Sequence record: PZ049713.1
Length of the DNA stretch: 59,621 nt
From: a phage
Strand: one strand, 5' to 3'
A program made the position numbers and the translations under genes. The notes under the pieces are model-generated. The model had not been told where the DNA came from and made no database searches. It saw only the letters and a list, made by a program, of their open reading frames with translations. This document shows positions 4,477 through 41,934 of the stretch, piece by piece. Numbering within the stretch: the first letter of the stretch is position 1; each line of letters starts with the position of its first letter.

Positions 4477-7467
4477 TCCACTGCCTCCAATGCCTTAGCC
4501 GGGTAAATCTGCACGCTGTTGCGATGGGCGCTGCTCTCGACTGCGTAGCCCTCTGGTGTCAGTTCCGTGGAGTAGGTGCCGCAGATATGGCCTTCCCACT
4601 CGCTGCCGGTGGACTTCTTCACGAGGTCGCCCATGCGGAACTTGCCTTGCGGGGCGGTCTGCGCGGAGCGGGTGAGTGACGCCGCGATGCGTTCGTGCTG
4701 GGCGACGGTCATATACTCCCCGTCGTCATCATCGGTCATATACGCCTCAACCTCAGAGGCGCGCCCGCAATGCGGCACGCTGGTCATCGGGCTGAACCGC
4801 TCCACCGCCTCCCGCTCATCCTGCGCCGGGCTGGCTCGTCGCCCTCCAGCTCTGCCGCTAGCTCGGGATTGCACACTGAGCAACCATCGCCAACCGTGCG
4901 CTCTCGCATCGTGCAGCGGCATTCCGACTCGGCCTGCTGGGATAGGGCGTCCTGATCCGTCCAGCCAGCGTGATCATGGAAAGGTGCAGGCCGCAGCCAT
5001 CGCCGTAGTGTTCGGCTTGGCAATCGACCACCTGCTGCGACGACCCGCGCATCGCTTCGTTCTCCGCCTTCGCAGCCCCCAGCTCAGCGCCGATTCGCCC
5101 GGCTACCTTCAGTGTGTCGTTCATTGCTCAATCTCCTTGATTGTGGCCAGCGGCAGCCCGCTCATTGCCAGCGGCTCGTCGTAGCAGACGCCCATCATCT
5201 CGGGCCATTTACGCGGCTCGCCCGGGTTTGATGGCGCCCTGGTATATGCCGGTCCCATGCCAGCCGATGCCGGATGACCTCGATACAAGTCCCACGCAAT
5301 GCCATCCTCGCGGCGCTTCGTGGCCTCCGGCATCAGTGTGCAGCCAGGCGCTGGATCTCGTGCCGCGTGGCGTGGACCTGCTCCCAGTCGCGCCGGTCGT
5401 AGAACCCGGCAGCCGCTCAATGGCGTGATCTGATCTGGCCGATCTTGATGCGTGCCAGTAGCTCACAGGCCTCTTGCAGCTCGGCGGCCTGGCGCTCGAG
5501 TTACGTGTGATGGTGTAGGTGCGCATTGGCGCCTCCTCGGCGGCTCCGGTGGGCGGCAGCGGAAACAGGGCGCATGGCCGATCCGCTTCCGTCTGTGCGG
5601 CAGAAGATTGGTGCGTTCACAGCGGCAGCGACCTGCACCGCAAGGCATTCGGCCTCGCCGTGGGGTGATGCAAGCCGATTCACTCGATCGCGCCACTCGT
5701 CCATCGACTCCCTGTGTCAGGGTGGCGGCCCGGCTTGTGGCATTCGGGCTGGAGAGGGCAGGCGCTGCAGCTGCTGCGGGACTTGAAGTTGTAGTGCTGG
5801 CGGCAGAGGGCCTTGGCGGTGTCGGATAGCTGGGTCACGGAGCAGATCCTTCGTAGCGGCTCACGCGGCGCAATGCGCGGCTCGACGTCGATGAACCGGA
5901 GCCTCGGAAGTCGCCATCGGTAGCGCGGCGACTGTCCACCTCAAGGCGCGCCGTGGCGTTAACCTCGGCCGCGACCTCGGCTACAGCCTTCGCTTGTCTC
6001 AATCGAGTAGGCTGCCGGCCAGCACGCCCTCCATCGTCTTGCCGAGGCATGGCGCGCAGATCACTGAGGTTGTTCATGGTGCTCTCCAGTTTGTCGAGCT
6101 TCCGCTCGAACCAGCCGAGCGTTATGGCTGCCTGGCGACCCTCGGGCGGATAGCGTTCGATTGAGTTGCGGCGCATGTCTTGTGCGGGTGACTAGCTCGA
6201 GGTTGTCGATTCCAGATGTTGGCGGGGTTGCGATCCTTGAAGACGAGGAAGTGCCCAGCCGGCACTGGGCCGCTGTGCCTTCCCACAACATCACGTGGAC
6301 CGGGCGCCAGTCAGTGCGCTTGTTGCCGGTGTCCGCCACCTTGCGGTAGAGGATGCCGCCCTTGTCGGTGCGCTCCGCTCCGATGGGGCGCCAGGTGTTC
6401 GATGGTCGGTGACCCAGCTTGAACTGCGTGTCCTTGGCCCGGCCTCCTGCCTGCCATCCTTTGCGGCCAGAGTTCCATGTCTGGTGGCCAGGCTTGAACC
6501 TGCCGCAGCCTGTGATTTCCTTGAACTCATCCGGTCGCGTTAGCTCCGAGTTTCGACACGCGATCGTGAATCGAGCCAGTGCCGCGCCCCATCAAGGCTG
6601 CTATCTCGGTGATGGGGCTTGGTGGCATAACAGTTCTGCCAGTGTTGCTGTCCTCTGCCGGCGTCCAGTGCCGGTATTCCGTGCGCCTCCTGCCGGCCAG
6701 TGGGCTCATTTCTTCCGTCTCCCGTGCGTTGTGGCTGTCCAGCCCGGCGCTGGCTACTTGGTTGCCGTGGTCAGCTATCAGGCTGTCGATCAGGGCGCCC
6801 ATGTAGGCGACTAGGCCAGTGACTGTTTCACCACGGGCCATCGCGCTGTGGGTGTGCTTCTCGCCGTTGGGCAGCACGAACCACGCGCTGGCGTTCCAGC
6901 TCGGAAGGGCGCCGAGGCTCAGTGCCGCGAACTACTGGCCGCGACACTCGGTTGTCGATTGAATAGAGCGTCACGATGCAGCTCATGGCTGGCACACCTC
7001 CAGCAGTGCCGCGTCGCTCAGATCACCAAGCGGCGCAGCGATGTATTGAGCAAGCGCGTAGACGCCCCACGGCTTGCCAGCGATTTCCGCCCGGTACGCC
7101 GCGTGACGGATGGCGTCGAGCACGTCGGGGAATCTCATGGCCACTCCTGCCGCAGCACGTCGTTCTGCTTGGCCTGCGGAGTGCCGCGCTTGCGCAGAGG
7201 GAGGCTGTTCGATACGGCAGAGTTGCGGGCGCCACGCTTGCGGCTGCGCTGGTCCGCCTCCGCGTTTCCGGCGTTGTTGAAGACGGCAGGCTTGATCTCT
7301 ATCGGCTTGCCGATGCTGTCGGGCAGCAGCTGGATCTTTCCGCCAGCGCTCAGGAATGCAGCCGGGCCGCGTCATCTGCGCGCGCGGAGCCTCGCCCTGC
7401 GCGACGGCATGGTTGTCGATGAGCGTGGGTGCGTACCGGGGAGGGGGCGGTGGCGCCGGGTGGATCA

Positions 7468-30867: not shown

Positions 30868-30898
30868 CAAACGAAAAAGCCCCGCACGATGGCGAGGC
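30868..30898 (-). terminator. Intrinsic terminator (minus strand)
   Basis: Minus-strand RNA GCCUCGC-caucgu-GCGGGGC then UUUUUCGUUUG; motif shared with 38515 and 38760. Confidence 0.55.
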
Positions 30899-30951
30899 TC
30901 TAGAAATGGAAAACCCGGCGCGGGCCGGGTCTGGTGTCCTGTTCTGGCGGT

Positions 30952-31203
30952 TTAGGCCAAAACCACGTGCTGCCCCTTCATCAGGCAGAAGGCGCACAGA
31001 AGCTGCTTTGTGCCGCCCTGTGGCTTGCCATTCTTTACGATCATGCCGGTCTTTACCTCGACGACGCTCGAGCTGCCGCACCTATGGCAGTTGAGCAGGT
31101 ATGCAGTATCGGGCCTCGCCTTCTTTAGCTTTTCAGCCTTGATGCGCGGCGTTTCGTCTGTAGCGGTGCCGTCGATGACGGTGAGGCGTGGTTTGTTGGT
31201 CAT
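30952..31203 (-). CDS. Zinc-ribbon small protein
   Basis: 83 aa; CHRCGSS...CAFC cysteine pairs; start overlaps GIY-YIG stop. Confidence 0.45.
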   Translation of the reverse strand: MTNKPRLTVIDGTATDETPRIKAEKLKKARPDTAYLLNCHRCGSSSVVEVKTGMIVKNGKPQGGTKQLLCAFCLMKGQHVVLA

Positions 31204-32184
31204 TCAGCCATCATAGGCCGGCATGGCTATCGGCGCCAAGATGGGCAGGTGCCTCCACGACTTCCCGATGACGATGCCGCGAATGACGGACCTATGCTTC
31301 CCGTAGTCGCGCGCAATCTGAACCAAGGGCTCACCCCTCTGCGCTCTCCGCCTGATGTCCATGATCTCAGCTTCTGTGAAGGCCGCGTTGTAGACCTTTT
31401 CGCCACGGTGGTTTATTGGCGGGGTATCGCCTAGCGGGAGGTGCCTCCATGTTTCGCCGCTAATAATCTTGCTTACAGCACTCCTGCTCACCCCGTACAT
31501 CTCGGCAATCTTTGCAGCGCTATTGCCGGCCGCCCGCAGACGCCTTATCTCCAGAACCTTTTGATCATTCAGCTTGGCCGATGAGATGTGCTCGCCCTGC
31601 GCGGTCCCCTCTGTCCGCCTTTGCTCCCAGTTGGCACGGCCAGCTATGGAGCTTATAGCTGACCTCTTGGCGTCGGATATCGCCATGCGCCCTCGGCGCG
31701 CCCTTTCGCTGCGCACCGCCGGGCCTACCATCATGCGGGCTTCGTGCTGCGCGTCAGTCCATGGAACATCTTTCTTCACAGCAGACATGCGAGCGCGGTA
31801 CTCATCGCAGCTCCACAGCCTCTGCACTGCCGACCTTATTCGGTCTCTGAGCTCTGGCGGAGCATCCAGCATCCCTTCGCCGCCCGCTGTGTGATTGACC
31901 AGATTGGCGCCGCCGGCCTTGAGCTTTGCTATCCAGTAGCGCTCAGATTCGTTCCATGTGGCGTCTCGCTGCAAGACTCTCACGCAGGCCTCATCGCCCC
32001 GCGCTATAACTGACCGGACCCAGTAGTCGCGGTGGGTTGGCCTGCTGGTTGACCCTGAGCGGGTTACGTGCTGGCGCAGCCGTCGCTCCACGGAGACCAC
32101 GGTCTGCCCGACATAGCGCATCAGTCCGTCAGATTTTGCATATAGCGCGTATACCGTGCACGTGCGAGAATTGGCGTCAGCCAT
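31204..32184 (-). CDS. GIY-YIG homing endonuclease with tandem C-terminal HTH repeats
   Basis: 326 aa; N-terminal VYALYAKSDGLMRYVGQT...RLRQH; two repeats of ...(I/V)A(E/R)xYG(V/K)xRS(A/V)(V/I)...(E/K)(T/S)WRHLP. Confidence 0.75.
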   Translation of the reverse strand: MADANSRTCTVYALYAKSDGLMRYVGQTVVSVERRLRQHVTRSGSTSRPTHRDYWVRSVIARGDEACVRVLQRDATWNESERYWIAKLKAGGANLVNHTAGGEGMLDAPPELRDRIRSAVQRLWSCDEYRARMSAVKKDVPWTDAQHEARMMVGPAVRSERARRGRMAISDAKRSAISSIAGRANWEQRRTEGTAQGEHISSAKLNDQKVLEIRRLRAAGNSAAKIAEMYGVSRSAVSKIISGETWRHLPLGDTPPINHRGEKVYNAAFTEAEIMDIRRRAQRGEPLVQIARDYGKHRSVIRGIVIGKSWRHLPILAPIAMPAYDG

Positions 32185-36470: not shown

Positions 36471-37205
36471 TCACATTAGAAGCGTGAACTGCCCATCCCA
36501 CGAATCGGACTTCTTTAGGTTCAGCTTGGCCCACATGGGGCGCAGGTTGTTTAGGCTGTTTGCAGCTTTTAGCTGCACGGGGTCAGTCAGATCAAAGGAT
36601 GACAGCGGTCTAATGTGGTCGATATGCCACTTATCCCTGTTGTGCCAGCCCATTCCACTATGGAATAGCGCTTCAAGGTGCTGGGCAAGGTCAGAGGCTG
36701 AATAGCCTAGGCATTCGGCAGTAACGTCTTCTTTCGCCTTCCCAACAAGCTCCAAGCAGCGCCTTATCATGCATCTTGATGCCTCTGCCGCCATCCCTTG
36801 CGGCGTCGATCTTCGACGCTTGCCTCTAATTGAGATTGACACTCTGCCCTTTTCAGACTTGGCATACTCAGCCTTGCGCTGGCGATACTCTTTAGTTTTG
36901 CGTTTGGCGCGAATCTTCTCTTGGAATTCAGGAGAGTAGTATTTCCTCCTAAGGCGCTCTTTTGCTTGTGGCGTAGCGTTTCTGGACTTCGCCCTTGCGC
37001 TACGCTTCGCCCGGTACTCCTCAGACTCTTCGCGTCTTGCTGCTCGCTCTCTCTCGCACTCTAGACAGTGCCCGGTTGCAGAAGACCTTTCCGAGTAATG
37101 CTCTCTGCGGCACGGGATGCCCGTAAAGTATTTGCTGAGCCCGACCTCTTTCGCTACTGAGCGCGAGACAATATGAATGCACGCGGATAGACTTGCGTCA
37201 GTCAT
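36471..37205 (-). CDS. HNH endonuclease, terminase-associated, with N-terminal zinc module
   Basis: 244 aa; C-terminal ...WHIDHIRP...NLRPMWAKLN...; N-terminal KYFTGIPC...GHCLEC module. Confidence 0.7.
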   Translation of the reverse strand: MTDASLSACIHIVSRSVAKEVGLSKYFTGIPCRREHYSERSSATGHCLECERERAARREESEEYRAKRSARAKSRNATPQAKERLRRKYYSPEFQEKIRAKRKTKEYRQRKAEYAKSEKGRVSISIRGKRRRSTPQGMAAEASRCMIRRCLELVGKAKEDVTAECLGYSASDLAQHLEALFHSGMGWHNRDKWHIDHIRPLSSFDLTDPVQLKAANSLNNLRPMWAKLNLKKSDSWDGQFTLLM

Positions 37206-37579: not shown

Positions 37580-37795
37580 TCACTTCGGCTCACCAGTCAC
37601 CTTCGGCTGCGACACCACCCGGGCGACAGCCATAGCCACGCCGAGAACCATGTTCACGCTGGCCCATGCGACGGGGCTGATGTGGCCCTCGAACGCTACC
37701 CATGCACCGGCTGCGGCGTTGAGCACTGCGGTCAGGATGGCGAGCTGCACACTGGTCAGACGCCAGCACTTGCGCCATTCAGGAATCAGGTTCAT
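37580..37795 (-). CDS. Holin-like small membrane protein
   Basis: 71 aa with two hydrophobic segments; ATGA overlap with upstream gene; early in the late operon. Confidence 0.4.
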   Translation of the reverse strand: MNLIPEWRKCWRLTSVQLAILTAVLNAAAGAWVAFEGHISPVAWASVNMVLGVAMAVARVVSQPKVTGEPK

Positions 37796-38213: not shown

Positions 38214-38462
38214 TCAGTCAGCTGGGGAAATGTCCACGTAGTAGGCTTTCCCCAGCTCAAGCTTGTTAGCCACCTCAGTGACCATGCCTGCCCGGAACTC
38301 ACCGTAAGGGGTCAGCCTGCCGAACACAGCGTTTTCATCTTCTTCCGTCCCGGTTACGCCGCTCGCATATACCGCGCCGAACCGAACGAGCGACATGCCT
38401 TCGGTGTGCTGGTTAAGCGAGATTTCGTGACAGATCATCTTGCAGCGAATGCGATGGGTCAT
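38214..38462 (-). CDS. Hypothetical protein, first ORF of late operon
   Basis: 82-aa ORF directly downstream of the tandem terminators. Confidence 0.35.
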   Translation of the reverse strand: MTHRIRCKMICHEISLNQHTEGMSLVRFGAVYASGVTGTEEDENAVFGRLTPYGEFRAGMVTEVANKLELGKAYYVDISPAD

Positions 38463-38514
38463 CTTGTGGTCCTTTGGTTGGTGCAGGATGGCCTATCAGT
38501 CTTTCGCCTGCTGA

Positions 38515-38544
38515 AACGAAGAAAGCCCCGCACTTGGCGAGGCC
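38515..38544 (-). terminator. Intrinsic terminator, late leader (downstream copy)
   Basis: Minus-strand RNA GCCUCGC-caagu-GCGGGGC then UUUCUUCGUUUC; the stem closes only on the minus strand (G-U wobble vs C-A mismatch on plus). Confidence 0.55.
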
Positions 38545-38759
38545 GAAAGATGTAGATCCCGATTCCCCGCACGTCTACGGGGCGATACCTGTTATCAGGT
38601 CGCGCAGTGTGCTGCGTGTGGCGCGTAGCCGATCGCAAGCAGGCCGGGGATTTGATGCGCTGTATTGGATGACGCGAGTATTAGCAGCGCTTGCCGTCGC
38701 ACGGCGTGGTGTTTGATGGGCGCAGGATGGCGAGGCCTTCGTCAGCCAGGTTCCGCCCG

Positions 38760-38789
38760 AAACGAAAAAGCCCCGACCGAAGTCAGGGC
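38760..38789 (-). terminator. Intrinsic terminator, late leader (upstream copy)
   Basis: Minus-strand RNA GCCCUGAC-uucg-GUCGGGGC then UUUUUCGUUU; 8-bp stem with UUCG tetraloop. Confidence 0.6.
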
Positions 38790-39035
38790 TCTTGAAGTTG
38801 TCCAAGGGGACTCTCCCCCTTGAGGCCACACCACTTTCTACTTGCGCTGATCAGACGCTTTCGCAGCAGGTGTCGCTGTATGCCGCGCCCGTAACGACAT
38901 TGGACCGGGACGATTCGCGACTCTCGGCCATCTCAACGCGAGAAATGACCAAGATAGGCATAGGATGGCTCATTGGCTCACAGGATGCAATAGCTGATTT
39001 GCACAAATCTGCGCTTTTTTGAGCAAATCTGCTGT

Positions 39036-39581
39036 TTATGCCGCTTGCTCAGCAATCAACCCCTCATTACCGAGGATCTCCTGCGCCTCAACCAGCGCTT
39101 GATCCACTTGGCGCTCCAGGTCACGGCGAATGTCCCGGCGCCACCGCTCCAGTGTCTTTTGCGGGCGGCCGTCTTCGTCCCAGCGGTCAAGCTCATACCA
39201 TGCGGCCGGCAATACGCTCGTGCTTCGCTTCCCTTCCGCGCCGGGCAGCTTCGGGAATGCCCAGGTGGCTACGGCGCACTGGATGAACCGGCCAGGTGCT
39301 GGCGACTTCACCGATCCGGCCAGCGCCATCATCGCATCGTGCTTGCGCTCCAGATGGGTGCTGTACTTGGCGACGAGCGCCAGCCACAGACCAACCGGCA
39401 GCGCCTTGTGCAGGCGACCATGGACCCAGCAGTCGGTTAAGAATGCCTCTTCCTTGCCGCAGATCGCCCCAGGCACTCGCTGGTCTTGCACCTTGGGGTC
39501 AAAGTCCACGCCGCCAGCGCTATTGATCGTCTCCGCAGCCAGAGCCCGGACTACTGCTGATACAACTGATGGGTAGGTCAT
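39036..39581 (-). CDS. Putative late-gene regulator (Q-like antiterminator candidate)
   Basis: 181 aa; positional only, last gene before the terminator-containing late leader; no motif recognised. Confidence 0.25.
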   Translation of the reverse strand: MTYPSVVSAVVRALAAETINSAGGVDFDPKVQDQRVPGAICGKEEAFLTDCWVHGRLHKALPVGLWLALVAKYSTHLERKHDAMMALAGSVKSPAPGRFIQCAVATWAFPKLPGAEGKRSTSVLPAAWYELDRWDEDGRPQKTLERWRRDIRRDLERQVDQALVEAQEILGNEGLIAEQAA

Positions 39582-40723
39582 CAGAACAATCTCCCAAGGG
39601 ATGCTGCGAATTCGTAAGGGTCTTTAGCGCTCTTGCGCAGGTTGCAAGGCGGGCACGCGATAACCAGATTGTCGACCACGTGCATTCCACCCTTCGATAG
39701 CGGCTGATAGTGGTCAACGTGATAGTTGTTTTCACACTTTGATTTGCACCAGTGGCAAAACTTTGGAACTGATCGCTCCCAGGCCATAATCACGGACGTA
39801 CTATCGCCACCAGCCTCTAGCTGTCTGCGCCTAGCCTTGTACGCTTTAGATATCGCCTTCCTGATCTCTGGATTCTTCTTTGCCCACTCTTTGGCTTTCT
39901 GCGCCCTTACTTCCCTGTTTTGTTCGTTGCGAATTCTCGCAAGTTGAATGATCCGATCCCTGTTTTCAGCAAGGTATTTCCGGTCGTACTCTTTTTTAAG
40001 TTCAGACCGTGAGAAAATTGCCAAGCACTCGACACATGATCCGGAGGCTGTATATTTCATGCCGCTGTGGCCCTTCGAGCACGGCCGTCCGACATACATT
40101 AAGGCGCCGCTTTCGAGCGCTATCTTTCGTGCGCTCTTGGCTATCCTGCGCTCCTTGCGACGAGCAGCTACCTCCGCCAGCCGAGACGATCGCTCTTCTG
40201 AGATTCGCTTGCGCTCTGCCTTCCCCTTCTCGTACTCCTCCAGCGTCATTCCGAACTTGGCGGCTGCCGATATAGCCTCGCATGTCCGGCAGCGATCAGT
40301 TGATACGTAGCGCTCTGCTGAATGTCCGTTAACGCACGGCAATCCGATGCTGTAGAACATCAGCCCGGCATCCATAGCAGCTTGCCGGAGAGAAGCGCGC
40401 CGTTCCCTCTCAGCTTTCCGCACGGCCAGCCCTGGATCTCGCTTCAGCCGTCGCGACATTTTCTTCTCTGCGCACAAAGGGTCAGAGTCACGCCGCAGCT
40501 TTTGCTCAGCGCGCTCGGCCTCTATGTTCGCGTGATACTTAGCTTTCCTCTTCAGCCTGGCGCACTCACAGCACGCGCCATTGATCGTGGCCCTGCTGGC
40601 GACGTGACCGGCAGGGCAAGGCTTGCCAGTGAAATAGGATTTGCTGCCGGCCTCCTTCGCCTCTTTTCGGCTGCAAGGAAGGTTCAAGTCATCTTGATCT
40701 TTGTTAGAATTCAAATCAGCCAT
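39581..40723 (-). CDS. HNH endonuclease with three N-terminal zinc-module repeats
   Basis: ~380 aa from ATG at 40723; C-terminal HVDHYQPLSKGG...NLVIACPPCNLRKS; three YFTG/YSIG/YVGxPC...GH...CxEC repeats. Confidence 0.65.
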   Translation of the reverse strand: MADLNSNKDQDDLNLPCSRKEAKEAGSKSYFTGKPCPAGHVASRATINGACCECARLKRKAKYHANIEAERAEQKLRRDSDPLCAEKKMSRRLKRDPGLAVRKAERERRASLRQAAMDAGLMFYSIGLPCVNGHSAERYVSTDRCRTCEAISAAAKFGMTLEEYEKGKAERKRISEERSSRLAEVAARRKERRIAKSARKIALESGALMYVGRPCSKGHSGMKYTASGSCVECLAIFSRSELKKEYDRKYLAENRDRIIQLARIRNEQNREVRAQKAKEWAKKNPEIRKAISKAYKARRRQLEAGGDSTSVIMAWERSVPKFCHWCKSKCENNYHVDHYQPLSKGGMHVVDNLVIACPPCNLRKSAKDPYEFAASLGRLF

Positions 40724-40806
40724 TTGTCGCTCCCATATAGCGCTAATGGTTAGGGCCGGCAGTGTGTTCCCGCACTCTGCTGGCCCGTTCAATTCTACCA
40801 AATTAA

Positions 40807-41934
40807 TCAAGCACATAACATTTCCGGCACAACTTCGTTAACTGCTACTCGCCCATATTCCTTGTGGTAGGTAATACCTATTGCGCGGCGGTTAGAGGCA
40901 TAGCCGAGTCTGGCTGCATATGATCCGGTCGCAGTCAGCGTCGGATGCCTGCGAACTATCATTCCGTTATGCGTAGCGACCTCTTCCTTGTGGTAGTGGC
41001 CGGTGTGCGCCTCTCTGTGCTTTGTGCAGCCCCAAATCTCGGGGAAGTTCGCCGCGAAGATGCCCGGCAGGTCCGAATTGCGCGCCTTGTGGCCGTGATG
41101 AAAGCCGAGCATCGTCTTGCCGTGCTGGTAGACGTAATACGGCGTCTCGCTCATGTTCACTTTCAATCTCGGCTCGTTTTCATATAGAGCCTCGAACATA
41201 TGGCGCAACCACAGCGATCCGGCCAAGTCATGGTTGCCCTCTGCAATTACCAGATGGACTTCCTCGTGCTTTGCCAGCGCCATATCAATAATGCTGCGTA
41301 GAACTTTGATACTAACCCGCACCAACTCTGCATATATGCCAGAGACGTTGAGCGGGTGCCGATTGGTTGGCGTTACTGGCTCCAGTCCGTCAAACGTCAG
41401 GAAGTCGCCTAGCTGGTTGATGACGCAATATCTCGCCTTGGCCGATGCGTTGATCATTGCGGCAAAGCAGCCGACAAGCACGCGCTCGGCTTCTTCGAGG
41501 TTCCAGTCGGCGCCACCCTGGATGGCAGTCGCGTATTCCCCGATGTGACAGTCCGTCAGGGTGTACAGGTTGCACAGCGCGTCGTCGGTTTGGGCAGGCC
41601 CGCCCATTGGCGCCAAGCGGTCTATCTGTTCGCCCATTGCTGCGGCTGCGGCGTGCATTAGCTCTAGCTGCCGTTCGTGGTCGATGCTGGACTTGACCCA
41701 CTGCAGCTTCTGCTCGCCGTCCTTGCCGTACAGTGTCGACGTGCCTTTCAGGTGGAAGCCGTCCGGCACGCTCTTGGTCATGTCGTGCTCCGGGCTCCAC
41801 CCCTGACGAGCCAAGCGCGCCTTATGGGTGTAGACGTTGCGCTCGTGCAGCCCAAGGATCTGCGCAGCCTCTGCCACAGTGCGGCCAGTCAGCGCGGCCT
41901 TGATTTCGTCGTCTGTCGCTTTGCGTGCGGCCAT
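40807..41934 (-). CDS. HTH-containing calcineurin-like metallophosphoesterase
   Basis: 375 aa; N-terminal HTH-like stretch; TDCHIG, GDFLTFDG, EGNHD, GFHHGH motifs. Confidence 0.5.
   Translation of the reverse strand: MAARKATDDEIKAALTGRTVAEAAQILGLHERNVYTHKARLARQGWSPEHDMTKSVPDGFHLKGTSTLYGKDGEQKLQWVKSSIDHERQLELMHAAAAAMGEQIDRLAPMGGPAQTDDALCNLYTLTDCHIGEYATAIQGGADWNLEEAERVLVGCFAAMINASAKARYCVINQLGDFLTFDGLEPVTPTNRHPLNVSGIYAELVRVSIKVLRSIIDMALAKHEEVHLVIAEGNHDLAGSLWLRHMFEALYENEPRLKVNMSETPYYVYQHGKTMLGFHHGHKARNSDLPGIFAANFPEIWGCTKHREAHTGHYHKEEVATHNGMIVRRHPTLTATGSYAARLGYASNRRAIGITYHKEYGRVAVNEVVPEMLCA

Follow-up and report, generated by a model that had tools for sequence, protein, structure and literature searches.

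What kind of control, if any, is encoded in the long non-coding gap that precedes the lysis genes of a lambdoid prophage? The question is raised by sequence record PZ049713.1, a phage DNA of 59,621 nucleotides (nt) that we analysed at its full length and refer to as the window. On its minus strand, a gap of about 570 bases (38463-39035) separates a gene for a 181-amino-acid (aa) protein, hereafter Q181 (39036..39581), from an open reading frame (ORF) of 82 aa (38214..38462), the first one past the leader, with lysis genes next. A first-pass annotation of this DNA had likened the gap to the Q-dependent pR'/tR' region found downstream of a Q-like gene. We propose, with a probability of about 0.78, that the gap is the late-gene control region of the prophage, built like lambda pR'-qut-tR' and PalpB-tB, and that Q181 acts there by antitermination.

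To place the gap in context we compared it with 53 viral contigs and 80 prophage loci carrying Q181 relatives of 94-40% identity. Across the 53 contigs the gap is a mosaic of non-coding modules that varies even between close relatives. A small ORF within it was considered and rejected, none being conserved.

Predicted late promoter and initial transcribed region

The upstream part of the gap has a strikingly regular organization in the relatives. All of 96 distinct upstream sequences fit one -35/-10 geometry, TTGnnn followed after 17-18 nt by nAnnnT; the -35 reads TTGACN in 60 of the 96, and A2 and T6 of the -10 hexamer are kept in all relatives. In the window (minus strand, as for all features below unless stated), the position within this geometry predicts the -35 as TTGCAT (38985..38990) and the -10 as CATCCT (38962..38967), the latter being the positional equivalent of CAATAT, CATTAT, TAGAGT and TATTGT in relatives. 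In distant prophages a compact version of the whole promoter-core-terminator unit is found, with a -35, TTGACR, that often overlaps the Q181 stop codon. An alternative, reading TGGCAG...TTGC of some relatives as a sigma-54 promoter, was set aside: its GG-GC spacing deviates by one, and other classes do not share the pattern. Likewise, an HNH gene lying 23 nt upstream of the core does not exclude a promoter, since the HNH-associated sequence brings a TTGACT -35 and the repeats with it. Such an HNH gene stands between the Q181 gene and the late promoter, supplying the -35, in Pseudomonas phage PS-1 and several contigs.

Five nucleotides past the -10 lies a second, -10-like element, [CT]ATC[CT]T, in which columns A3, T4, C5 and T7 are invariant among 43 diverse sequences. 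With the predicted transcription start at A 38955, the window copy, TATCTT (38951..38956), would occupy approximately -1..+5, and we presume it to be the inducer of a sigma-70-dependent pause. A -10-like sequence in the initial transcribed region, as expected of a Q-type locus, is therefore present, the pause itself being a prediction. The element belongs to a 37-nt initial transcribed core (38921..38957) that occurs once per locus, on the strand of Q181, in nearly all loci, and is far better conserved than its surroundings; it reads CTATCTTGGTCATTTC(A/T)CGCGTTGAGATGGCCGAGAG in the clade of the window. The core contains an invariant CG.GT at about +16..+20, its invariant C-G falling at +16/+17.

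The same stretch is predicted to fold, once transcribed, into an RNA hairpin of 12-13 bp with three G.U pairs (38923..38953, +3..+33; -18.4 kcal/mol). A hairpin over a GCGYG loop is found in almost all of 82 distinct variants, with a mean z of -2.3; in one clade, 85.8% of cells are paired, whereas sliding the partner gives 35-58%, and double changes are seen at three pairs. Covariation was computed within a single clade, since a register shift by one between clades makes column-wise covariation over all clades impossible. We can only guess at a role for this hairpin, perhaps as a 5' stabiliser, or as a stopper preventing the RNA from slipping out of a nozzle.

Farther upstream, at 38993-39032 and hence at about -78..-40 of the predicted promoter, are two GCAGATTTG direct repeats at a distance of 20 nt, both of which lead into a palindrome of 10 bp, TTTGnnCAAA. 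The repeats are kept in the related loci L002, L003 and L011 and partly in L055 and L039, and may be the site for another regulator.

Spacer repeats that track the C-terminal part of Q181

In every clade, the promoter spacer carries two direct repeats with an 8-bp period; in the window these are TGAGCC-AA-TGAGCC (38967..38980). A DNA element is thus embedded in the promoter between -35 and -10, and we predict it to be bound by Q181 as the equivalent of the Q binding element (QBE) or AlpA binding element (ABE). Six repeat classes can be distinguished, namely TGAGCC, to which the window belongs, TGGCAG, GTGAGA, GATAGA-like, ATGTCGC and the GCCTGCCGGTTCGCCG type, and over about 110 loci the class corresponds without exception to a signature at residues 139-153 of Q181, at the start of its last long helix. 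The signature is (Q/V/I)KT(L/Q)ERWRRDIR with TGAGCC, ERT(K/Q)(H/Y)RWK(S/A) with TGGCAG, and (D/E)ST(L/R)YRWRS with the GATAGA-like and GTGAGA repeats.

The C-terminal domain of Q181 is exchanged as a module: the proteins of L021, L035 and PS-1, all with other repeat classes, are 96-97% identical to that of the window over residues 56-125, in the middle domain, and only 58-61% identical over residues 126-181. Linkage alone is a poor explanation for the match of signature and repeat, since it also holds where a gene of 0.5-1.4 kb lies between promoter and Q181 gene. In AlpA, the DNA-reading helix-turn-helix involves R128 and K138-H142 (PMC9371919); by analogy of relative position, which is similar, the signature segment of Q181 may be its equivalent.

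The Q181 protein

Q181 belongs to phrog_3412, annotated as hypothetical. Searches gave no match in Pfam (E <= 0.01), in NCBIfam (E <= 10) or among PDB chains (E <= 10, by sequence or with a 35-sequence profile); in particular, there was no profile match to the known Q families (Antiterm, Phage_antitermQ, Phage_antiter_Q) or to the AlpA family. An AlphaFold model built on a 35-sequence alignment is all-helical, with a predicted local distance difference test score (pLDDT) of 86, and its fold matches AlpA and, more weakly, Q-lambda and Q21; the top Foldseek match, a weak one, is the Q-lambda loading complex. Identity to AlpA (PDB 7xyb) in the structural alignment is 14%. The Q/AlpA fold comprises an N-terminal ring-forming part and C-terminal DNA-binding helices, and the model agrees with this fold. 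We predict that Q181, a lambda-Q-like protein, is a processive antiterminator that probably overrides the stop signals of the gap. Fold, architecture and comparison support the view that Q181 and its relatives, together with the promoter that goes with them, add to the Q/AlpA-type antiterminators a family unrelated in sequence; we found nothing in the literature on this family as an antiterminator.

One other segment of the protein stands out. Residues ~22-42 (window 39455-39520) form a glycine-rich loop, GG.DF.PKVQ....G.I.GKE, almost invariant across the family and modelled with low confidence (pLDDT 57-67), which is a candidate for an RNA polymerase contact or for the ring-forming part.

Terminators and a predicted leader RNA

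The gap contains the two minus-strand terminators reported at first, T1 and T2. T1 (38760..38790) consists of a hairpin at 38790-38770, A-GCCCTGAC-loop TTCG-GTCGGGGC-T with an extra A-U pair included, and a tail TTTTTCGTTT at 38769-38760, with a folding energy of -18.0 kcal/mol; its 30-nt hairpin is 100% identical in many relatives. T2 (38514..38544) has the stem GCCTCGC, loop CAAGT and stem GCGGGGC at 38543-38525, a tail TTTCTTCGTTT at 38524-38514, and a folding energy of -13.4 kcal/mol. Its tail, given as UUUUUCGUUU, is not identical to that sequence and has one C inserted relative to that of T1. The third copy of the element announced for the head operon, T3, is also there (30869..30898), reading GCCTCGC CATCGT GCGGGGC TTTTTCGTTT at 30898-30869 (-14.5 kcal/mol), past a homing-endonuclease-like insert and before the scaffold gene; directly upstream of it is another terminator-like hairpin, CCCGGC CCGC GCCGGG TTTT (~30905..30930, -15.4 kcal/mol). 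T1, T2 and T3 all combine a G+C-rich hairpin with a U-rich tract, 8 U in 10-11 nt, and qualify as intrinsic terminators. The stems of T1 and T2 hold one U.G pair each, whose plus-strand counterpart would be a C-A mismatch, and T-runs are found on the minus strand only, so that the original strand assignment is correct.

The three terminators are relatives. The window contains two copies of the 16-mer AAACGAAAAAGCCCCG, where 0.04 would be expected, and local alignments among the three cassettes score 49-56, compared to 18-20 +/- 4 (maximum 40) for shuffles, which places their relationship beyond a generic terminator shape. T1 and T2 cassettes remain homologous for about 50 nt beyond their U-tracts. 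The tail of the T1 cassette (38715..38759) holds a degenerate terminator-like copy, GGCCTCGCCATCCTGCGCCC, is homologous to the T2 tail and to the stem and loop of T3, and resembles a decayed T3-type copy.

These duplicated tails account for the GCAGGATGGC box that had been noted before each terminator. There are indeed two copies, at 38722-38731 in the T1 tail (one position from where it had been placed) and at 38483..38492 in the T2 tail, a number that is only mildly unusual, being reached in 5 of 100 shuffles. Because the box lies inside the duplicated tail of about 50 nt and reads CACCAT rather than CATCCT in most relatives, sequence comparison indicates that it is a by-product of T1/T2 cassette duplication and no independent motif; for the same reasons we rejected it as a functional -10-like or pause element.

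How general is a terminator at this place? Under a strict definition, applied to the 280 nt downstream of the core, a terminator is found in 85 of 106 distinct loci (80%), compared to 7 of 311 control windows (2%), and the median core-to-terminator distance is 40 nt. The position is kept even where the sequence is unrelated, as in the L059-L134 prophages. T1, as the first terminator past the promoter, is therefore the tR' equivalent, and the short leader RNA suggested earlier is a reasonable prediction from the sequence: made without Q181, it would extend over about 192 nt from the predicted start, 38955, to T1.

In L032 and L033, tRNA genes follow the transcribed core, apparently ahead of the terminator, so that this stretch is probably transcribed. 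They are tRNA-Met at 1782-1858 of L032 and tRNA-Asn and tRNA-Thr at 4613-4768 of L033, directly past the conserved initial transcribed region, the latter two upstream of a T1-like sequence at 4772-4849. If these tRNAs precede the first terminator, an antiterminator would not be needed for their synthesis. A tRNA scan of the window found no tRNA.

A structured RNA past the first terminator

Between the T1 tail and T2 lies a 103-nt RNA (38554..38656) with a four-way junction (P1, P2/P2a, P3, P4), so that T1 and T2 are not one tandem pair as first described; T2 is the closing terminator of a separate structured-RNA cassette. RNAalifold on 25 distinct copies gave the four-way junction with 29 pairs, and 99.4% of cells are paired (29-42% in slid controls). 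Seven pairs in P2, P2a, P3 and P4 carry compensatory changes, in several combinations, compared to at most one in slid controls. The covariance model scores 128 bits, the window copy folds alike when folded alone, and, owing to its G.U pairs, the fold can form only on the strand of the late transcript. The RNA is 95-98% identical even in related contigs whose Q181 is merely 69% identical.

It was found in 57 IMG/VR contigs, and S. stutzeri KOS6 is its only carrier among the 80 prophage loci; no copy was found among 50,697 isolate phage records. A metagenome scan returned at least 120 matching stretches, with one true copy among the 80 loci listed. Comparison with Rfam 15 found no family over 38554-38656, at gathering or at E <= 10, and nothing relevant for the rest of the gap at the same thresholds. 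Two features proposed for this RNA were discarded: an AAUCCCC-GGGGAAU pairing, whose changes by inspection are uncorrelated, and an RsmA/CsrA-type GGA loop in P4, which is not conserved.

The RNA is always downstream of the first terminator. In about 20 loci a T2-type terminator follows at about 10 nt and then a variable gene; in other loci a different hairpin region comes next, followed by holin genes. Size and multi-stem architecture are typical of riboswitch aptamers and phage-associated structured RNAs. With regard to a riboswitch, the multi-stem fold is kept and T2 follows at ~10 nt in those ~20 loci, T2 and P4 show no co-variation, and no clue to a ligand was found. As a candidate for a new family of RNAs in the late leaders of phages it is well supported. 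Its synthesis would require Q-type read-through of T1, and it could be a cis-regulator of lysis or accessory genes, or a processed late small RNA. That it is a new functional RNA class, and that the 5' hairpin is a stopper for a nozzle-type antiterminator, are two tentative suggestions, somewhat more doubtful than probable.

Loci that lack T2 (for example L025 at ~5030-5100; L013, L048) have a second conserved hairpin region past the 103-nt RNA, CCGGCCCCATGCCTGCCTCCTTGCTCATAGGCGG...GGCCGG, whose loop presents an anti-Shine-Dalgarno-like CCUCCU just upstream of the holin genes.

Proposed mechanism and alternative explanations

We consider the following scenario. A sigma-70 promoter (-35 at 38990-38985, -10 at 38967-38962) would start transcripts near 38955, and TATCTT at -1..+5 would re-capture sigma-70, causing RNA polymerase to pause at about +16/+17, at the invariant C-G. 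Q181 might bind both TGAGCC repeats through the start of its last helix (residues ~141-150) and load onto the paused polymerase, making it terminator-resistant, most likely by forming an RNA-exit-channel nozzle like AlpA or Q21. Without Q181, transcripts would stop at T1, leaving the leader RNA; with Q181, polymerase would read through T1, the structured-RNA cassette, T2 and the later tandem terminators at 30930-30869, and the lysis, packaging, head and tail genes would be expressed. DNA binding, pausing and antitermination by Q181, as well as any role of the hairpin, are steps that we infer.

The pR'/tR' layout is backed by the Q181 fold, the promoter geometry in 96 of 96 sequences, the -10-like element, the terminators at 80% versus 2%, and the lambdoid gene order; the earlier account had recognized the layout, without locating the promoter, the repeats or the pause element. 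Several points weigh against the scenario nevertheless. Q181 is without sequence-level similarity to any Q family or AlpA, and its Foldseek match to Q-lambda is weak (E 0.63). The window hexamers match the consensus poorly, in 3 of 6 positions each for the -35 and the -10, and a generic promoter scan did not call them; the promoter assignment therefore rests on positional homology. The link between signature and repeat could partly reflect physical linkage of adjacent DNA. The covariation of the hairpin is modest, and to our knowledge a stable hairpin within the first 33 nt is no known feature of Q systems.

Weak hexamers in the window would also suit a simpler arrangement, in which Q181 activates the late promoter in the classical way, with no processive antitermination, and the terminators do no more than stop transcripts that are leaky or come from upstream. 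The repeats overlap the spacer and the -35 region, which some activators bind, and AlpA itself was long regarded as an activator (PMC7969949). We nevertheless consider this unlikely: most relatives have a good -35 (TTGACA or TTGACG) that makes an activator unnecessary, in 80% of loci a terminator stands between the promoter and the whole set of late genes, the operon itself contains more of them, the best structural matches of Q181 are antiterminators, and the conserved -10-like element has no part in simple activation. A quite different reading has the 37-nt core work at the RNA level, in the manner of lambda nut or HK022 put: the hairpin RNA, by itself or with Q181 bound to it, would modify polymerase arriving from the early operon, and there would be no promoter in the gap. 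Such a reading draws on the conservation of the hairpin, its strand specificity (G.U pairs), some compensatory changes, and the far stronger conservation of the core than of its surroundings. It appears still less probable to us, given a full -35/-10 geometry immediately upstream in 96 of 96 sequences and a Q181 fold that is AlpA/Q-like, not N-like; moreover, the class-specific element that tracks Q181 is the DNA upstream of the core, not the hairpin, and there is a single stem-loop with no boxA-like sequence.

The terminators themselves invite another thought: T1, T2 and T3, together with the boxes, might all be copies of some small intergenic element, repeated or mobile, that plays no specific part in late control. 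In favour of this idea are the paralogy of the three cassettes, which extends well past the hairpin, and the mosaic make-up of the leader, which changes from one close relative to the next. Yet a terminator is kept at this place with unrelated sequence, for instance in the L059-L134 prophages, and every copy is co-oriented with late transcription and has a proper U-tract; a repeated origin is, besides, compatible with terminator function rather than opposed to it. We give the absence of a late-control role very little credence, and retain Q-type antitermination by Q181 as our working model.

Gene order and other features of the window

The window represents a lambdoid prophage of Pseudomonas, probably of the Stutzerimonas group, whose late genes lie on the minus strand; PS-1 is the closest isolate. 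Along that strand RusA comes first, then an exonuclease-like gene, an HNH gene, the Q181 gene, the gap, the 82-aa ORF and a 104-aa ORF, then the holin (37580-37795), an HNH gene, small and large terminase, portal and head morphogenesis, and finally the homing-endonuclease-like insert, T3, scaffold and major head protein. Three HNH or homing-endonuclease-like genes thus lie in or beside the late region (39581-40816, 36471-37205 and 31204-32184). Between the last of them and the terminators at 30930-30869 is a small ORF (30953-31100) with a zinc-ribbon-like CxxC...CxxC spacing. On the plus strand, at 54390-54469, the window carries the Rfam Proteo-phage-1 RNA (70 bits compared to a gathering score of 42).

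Implications

The analysis offers a probable function and a full map of cis-elements for phrog_3412, a family whose members, in hundreds of viral contigs and Pseudomonas prophages, are annotated only as hypothetical. The AlpA-type fold, so far that of a chromosomal regulator of cell death, would be extended to genuine late control in a phage, an indication that AlpA is likely to be of phage origin. Nature offers here six repeat classes and six signatures on an otherwise near-identical scaffold, with which DNA recognition by Q-type proteins can be studied directly, and from which orthogonal antitermination switches for Pseudomonas could be built. What is truly new is the structured 103-nt RNA; the conserved 5' hairpin comes on top of it and lacks an explanation. 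A stopper function of the hairpin, if true, would have no described precedent among Q systems.

Comparison with known systems

AlpA of Pseudomonas aeruginosa is a Q-like processive antiterminator that uses an element between the -35 and -10 of PalpB, and by narrowing the RNA exit channel it lets polymerase bypass the terminator tB (PMC7969949, PMC9371919). At PalpB a -10-like CACGAT at -1..+5 is required for the sigma-dependent pause (PMC9371919), and both ABE and QBE sit in the promoter spacer (PMC7969949, PMC9371919). The Q181 locus has the same -10-like geometry at -1..+5 and a spacer element as well, while the proteins have no detectable sequence similarity. Unlike AlpA, for which a single GGGACG site and one protomer are involved, the Q181 locus offers two direct repeats with an 8-bp period, a sequence arrangement that suggests two Q181 binding events; two protomers participate in loading in the case of Q21 (PMC9371919). 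AlpA is a chromosomal regulator of a cell-death locus, whereas Q181 would be the late regulator of a complete lambdoid prophage, and the initial-transcript hairpin conserved at Q181 loci has no described counterpart at PalpB.

With the lambdoid Q proteins of lambda, 21 and 82, Q181 shares the gene position, past the rusA/nin genes and before the lysis genes, and the predicted logic of the locus is common to both: a constitutive promoter, a sigma-dependent pause, a short terminated leader, and read-through of many terminators. The 6S RNA of lambda measures 194 nt, close to the leader length predicted here. In Shiga-toxin phages, tRNAs and accessory genes are found within the Q leader, as they are in Q181-type leaders. 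The position expected for the pause, too, is that of lambda pR', where polymerase pauses at +16/+17 with a -10-like element (PMC5001585).

HK022 put and lambda N-nut resemble the Q181 locus in having a conserved RNA stem-loop near the promoter, upstream of terminators. Neither the boxA plus boxB of N-nut nor the two stem-loops of put, systems without a promoter-embedded DNA site, were found at the Q181 locus, which has a single hairpin, no boxA and no arginine-rich N-like protein. Unlike the RNA-dependent put and N-nut systems, the Q181 locus apparently has DNA as its specificity determinant.
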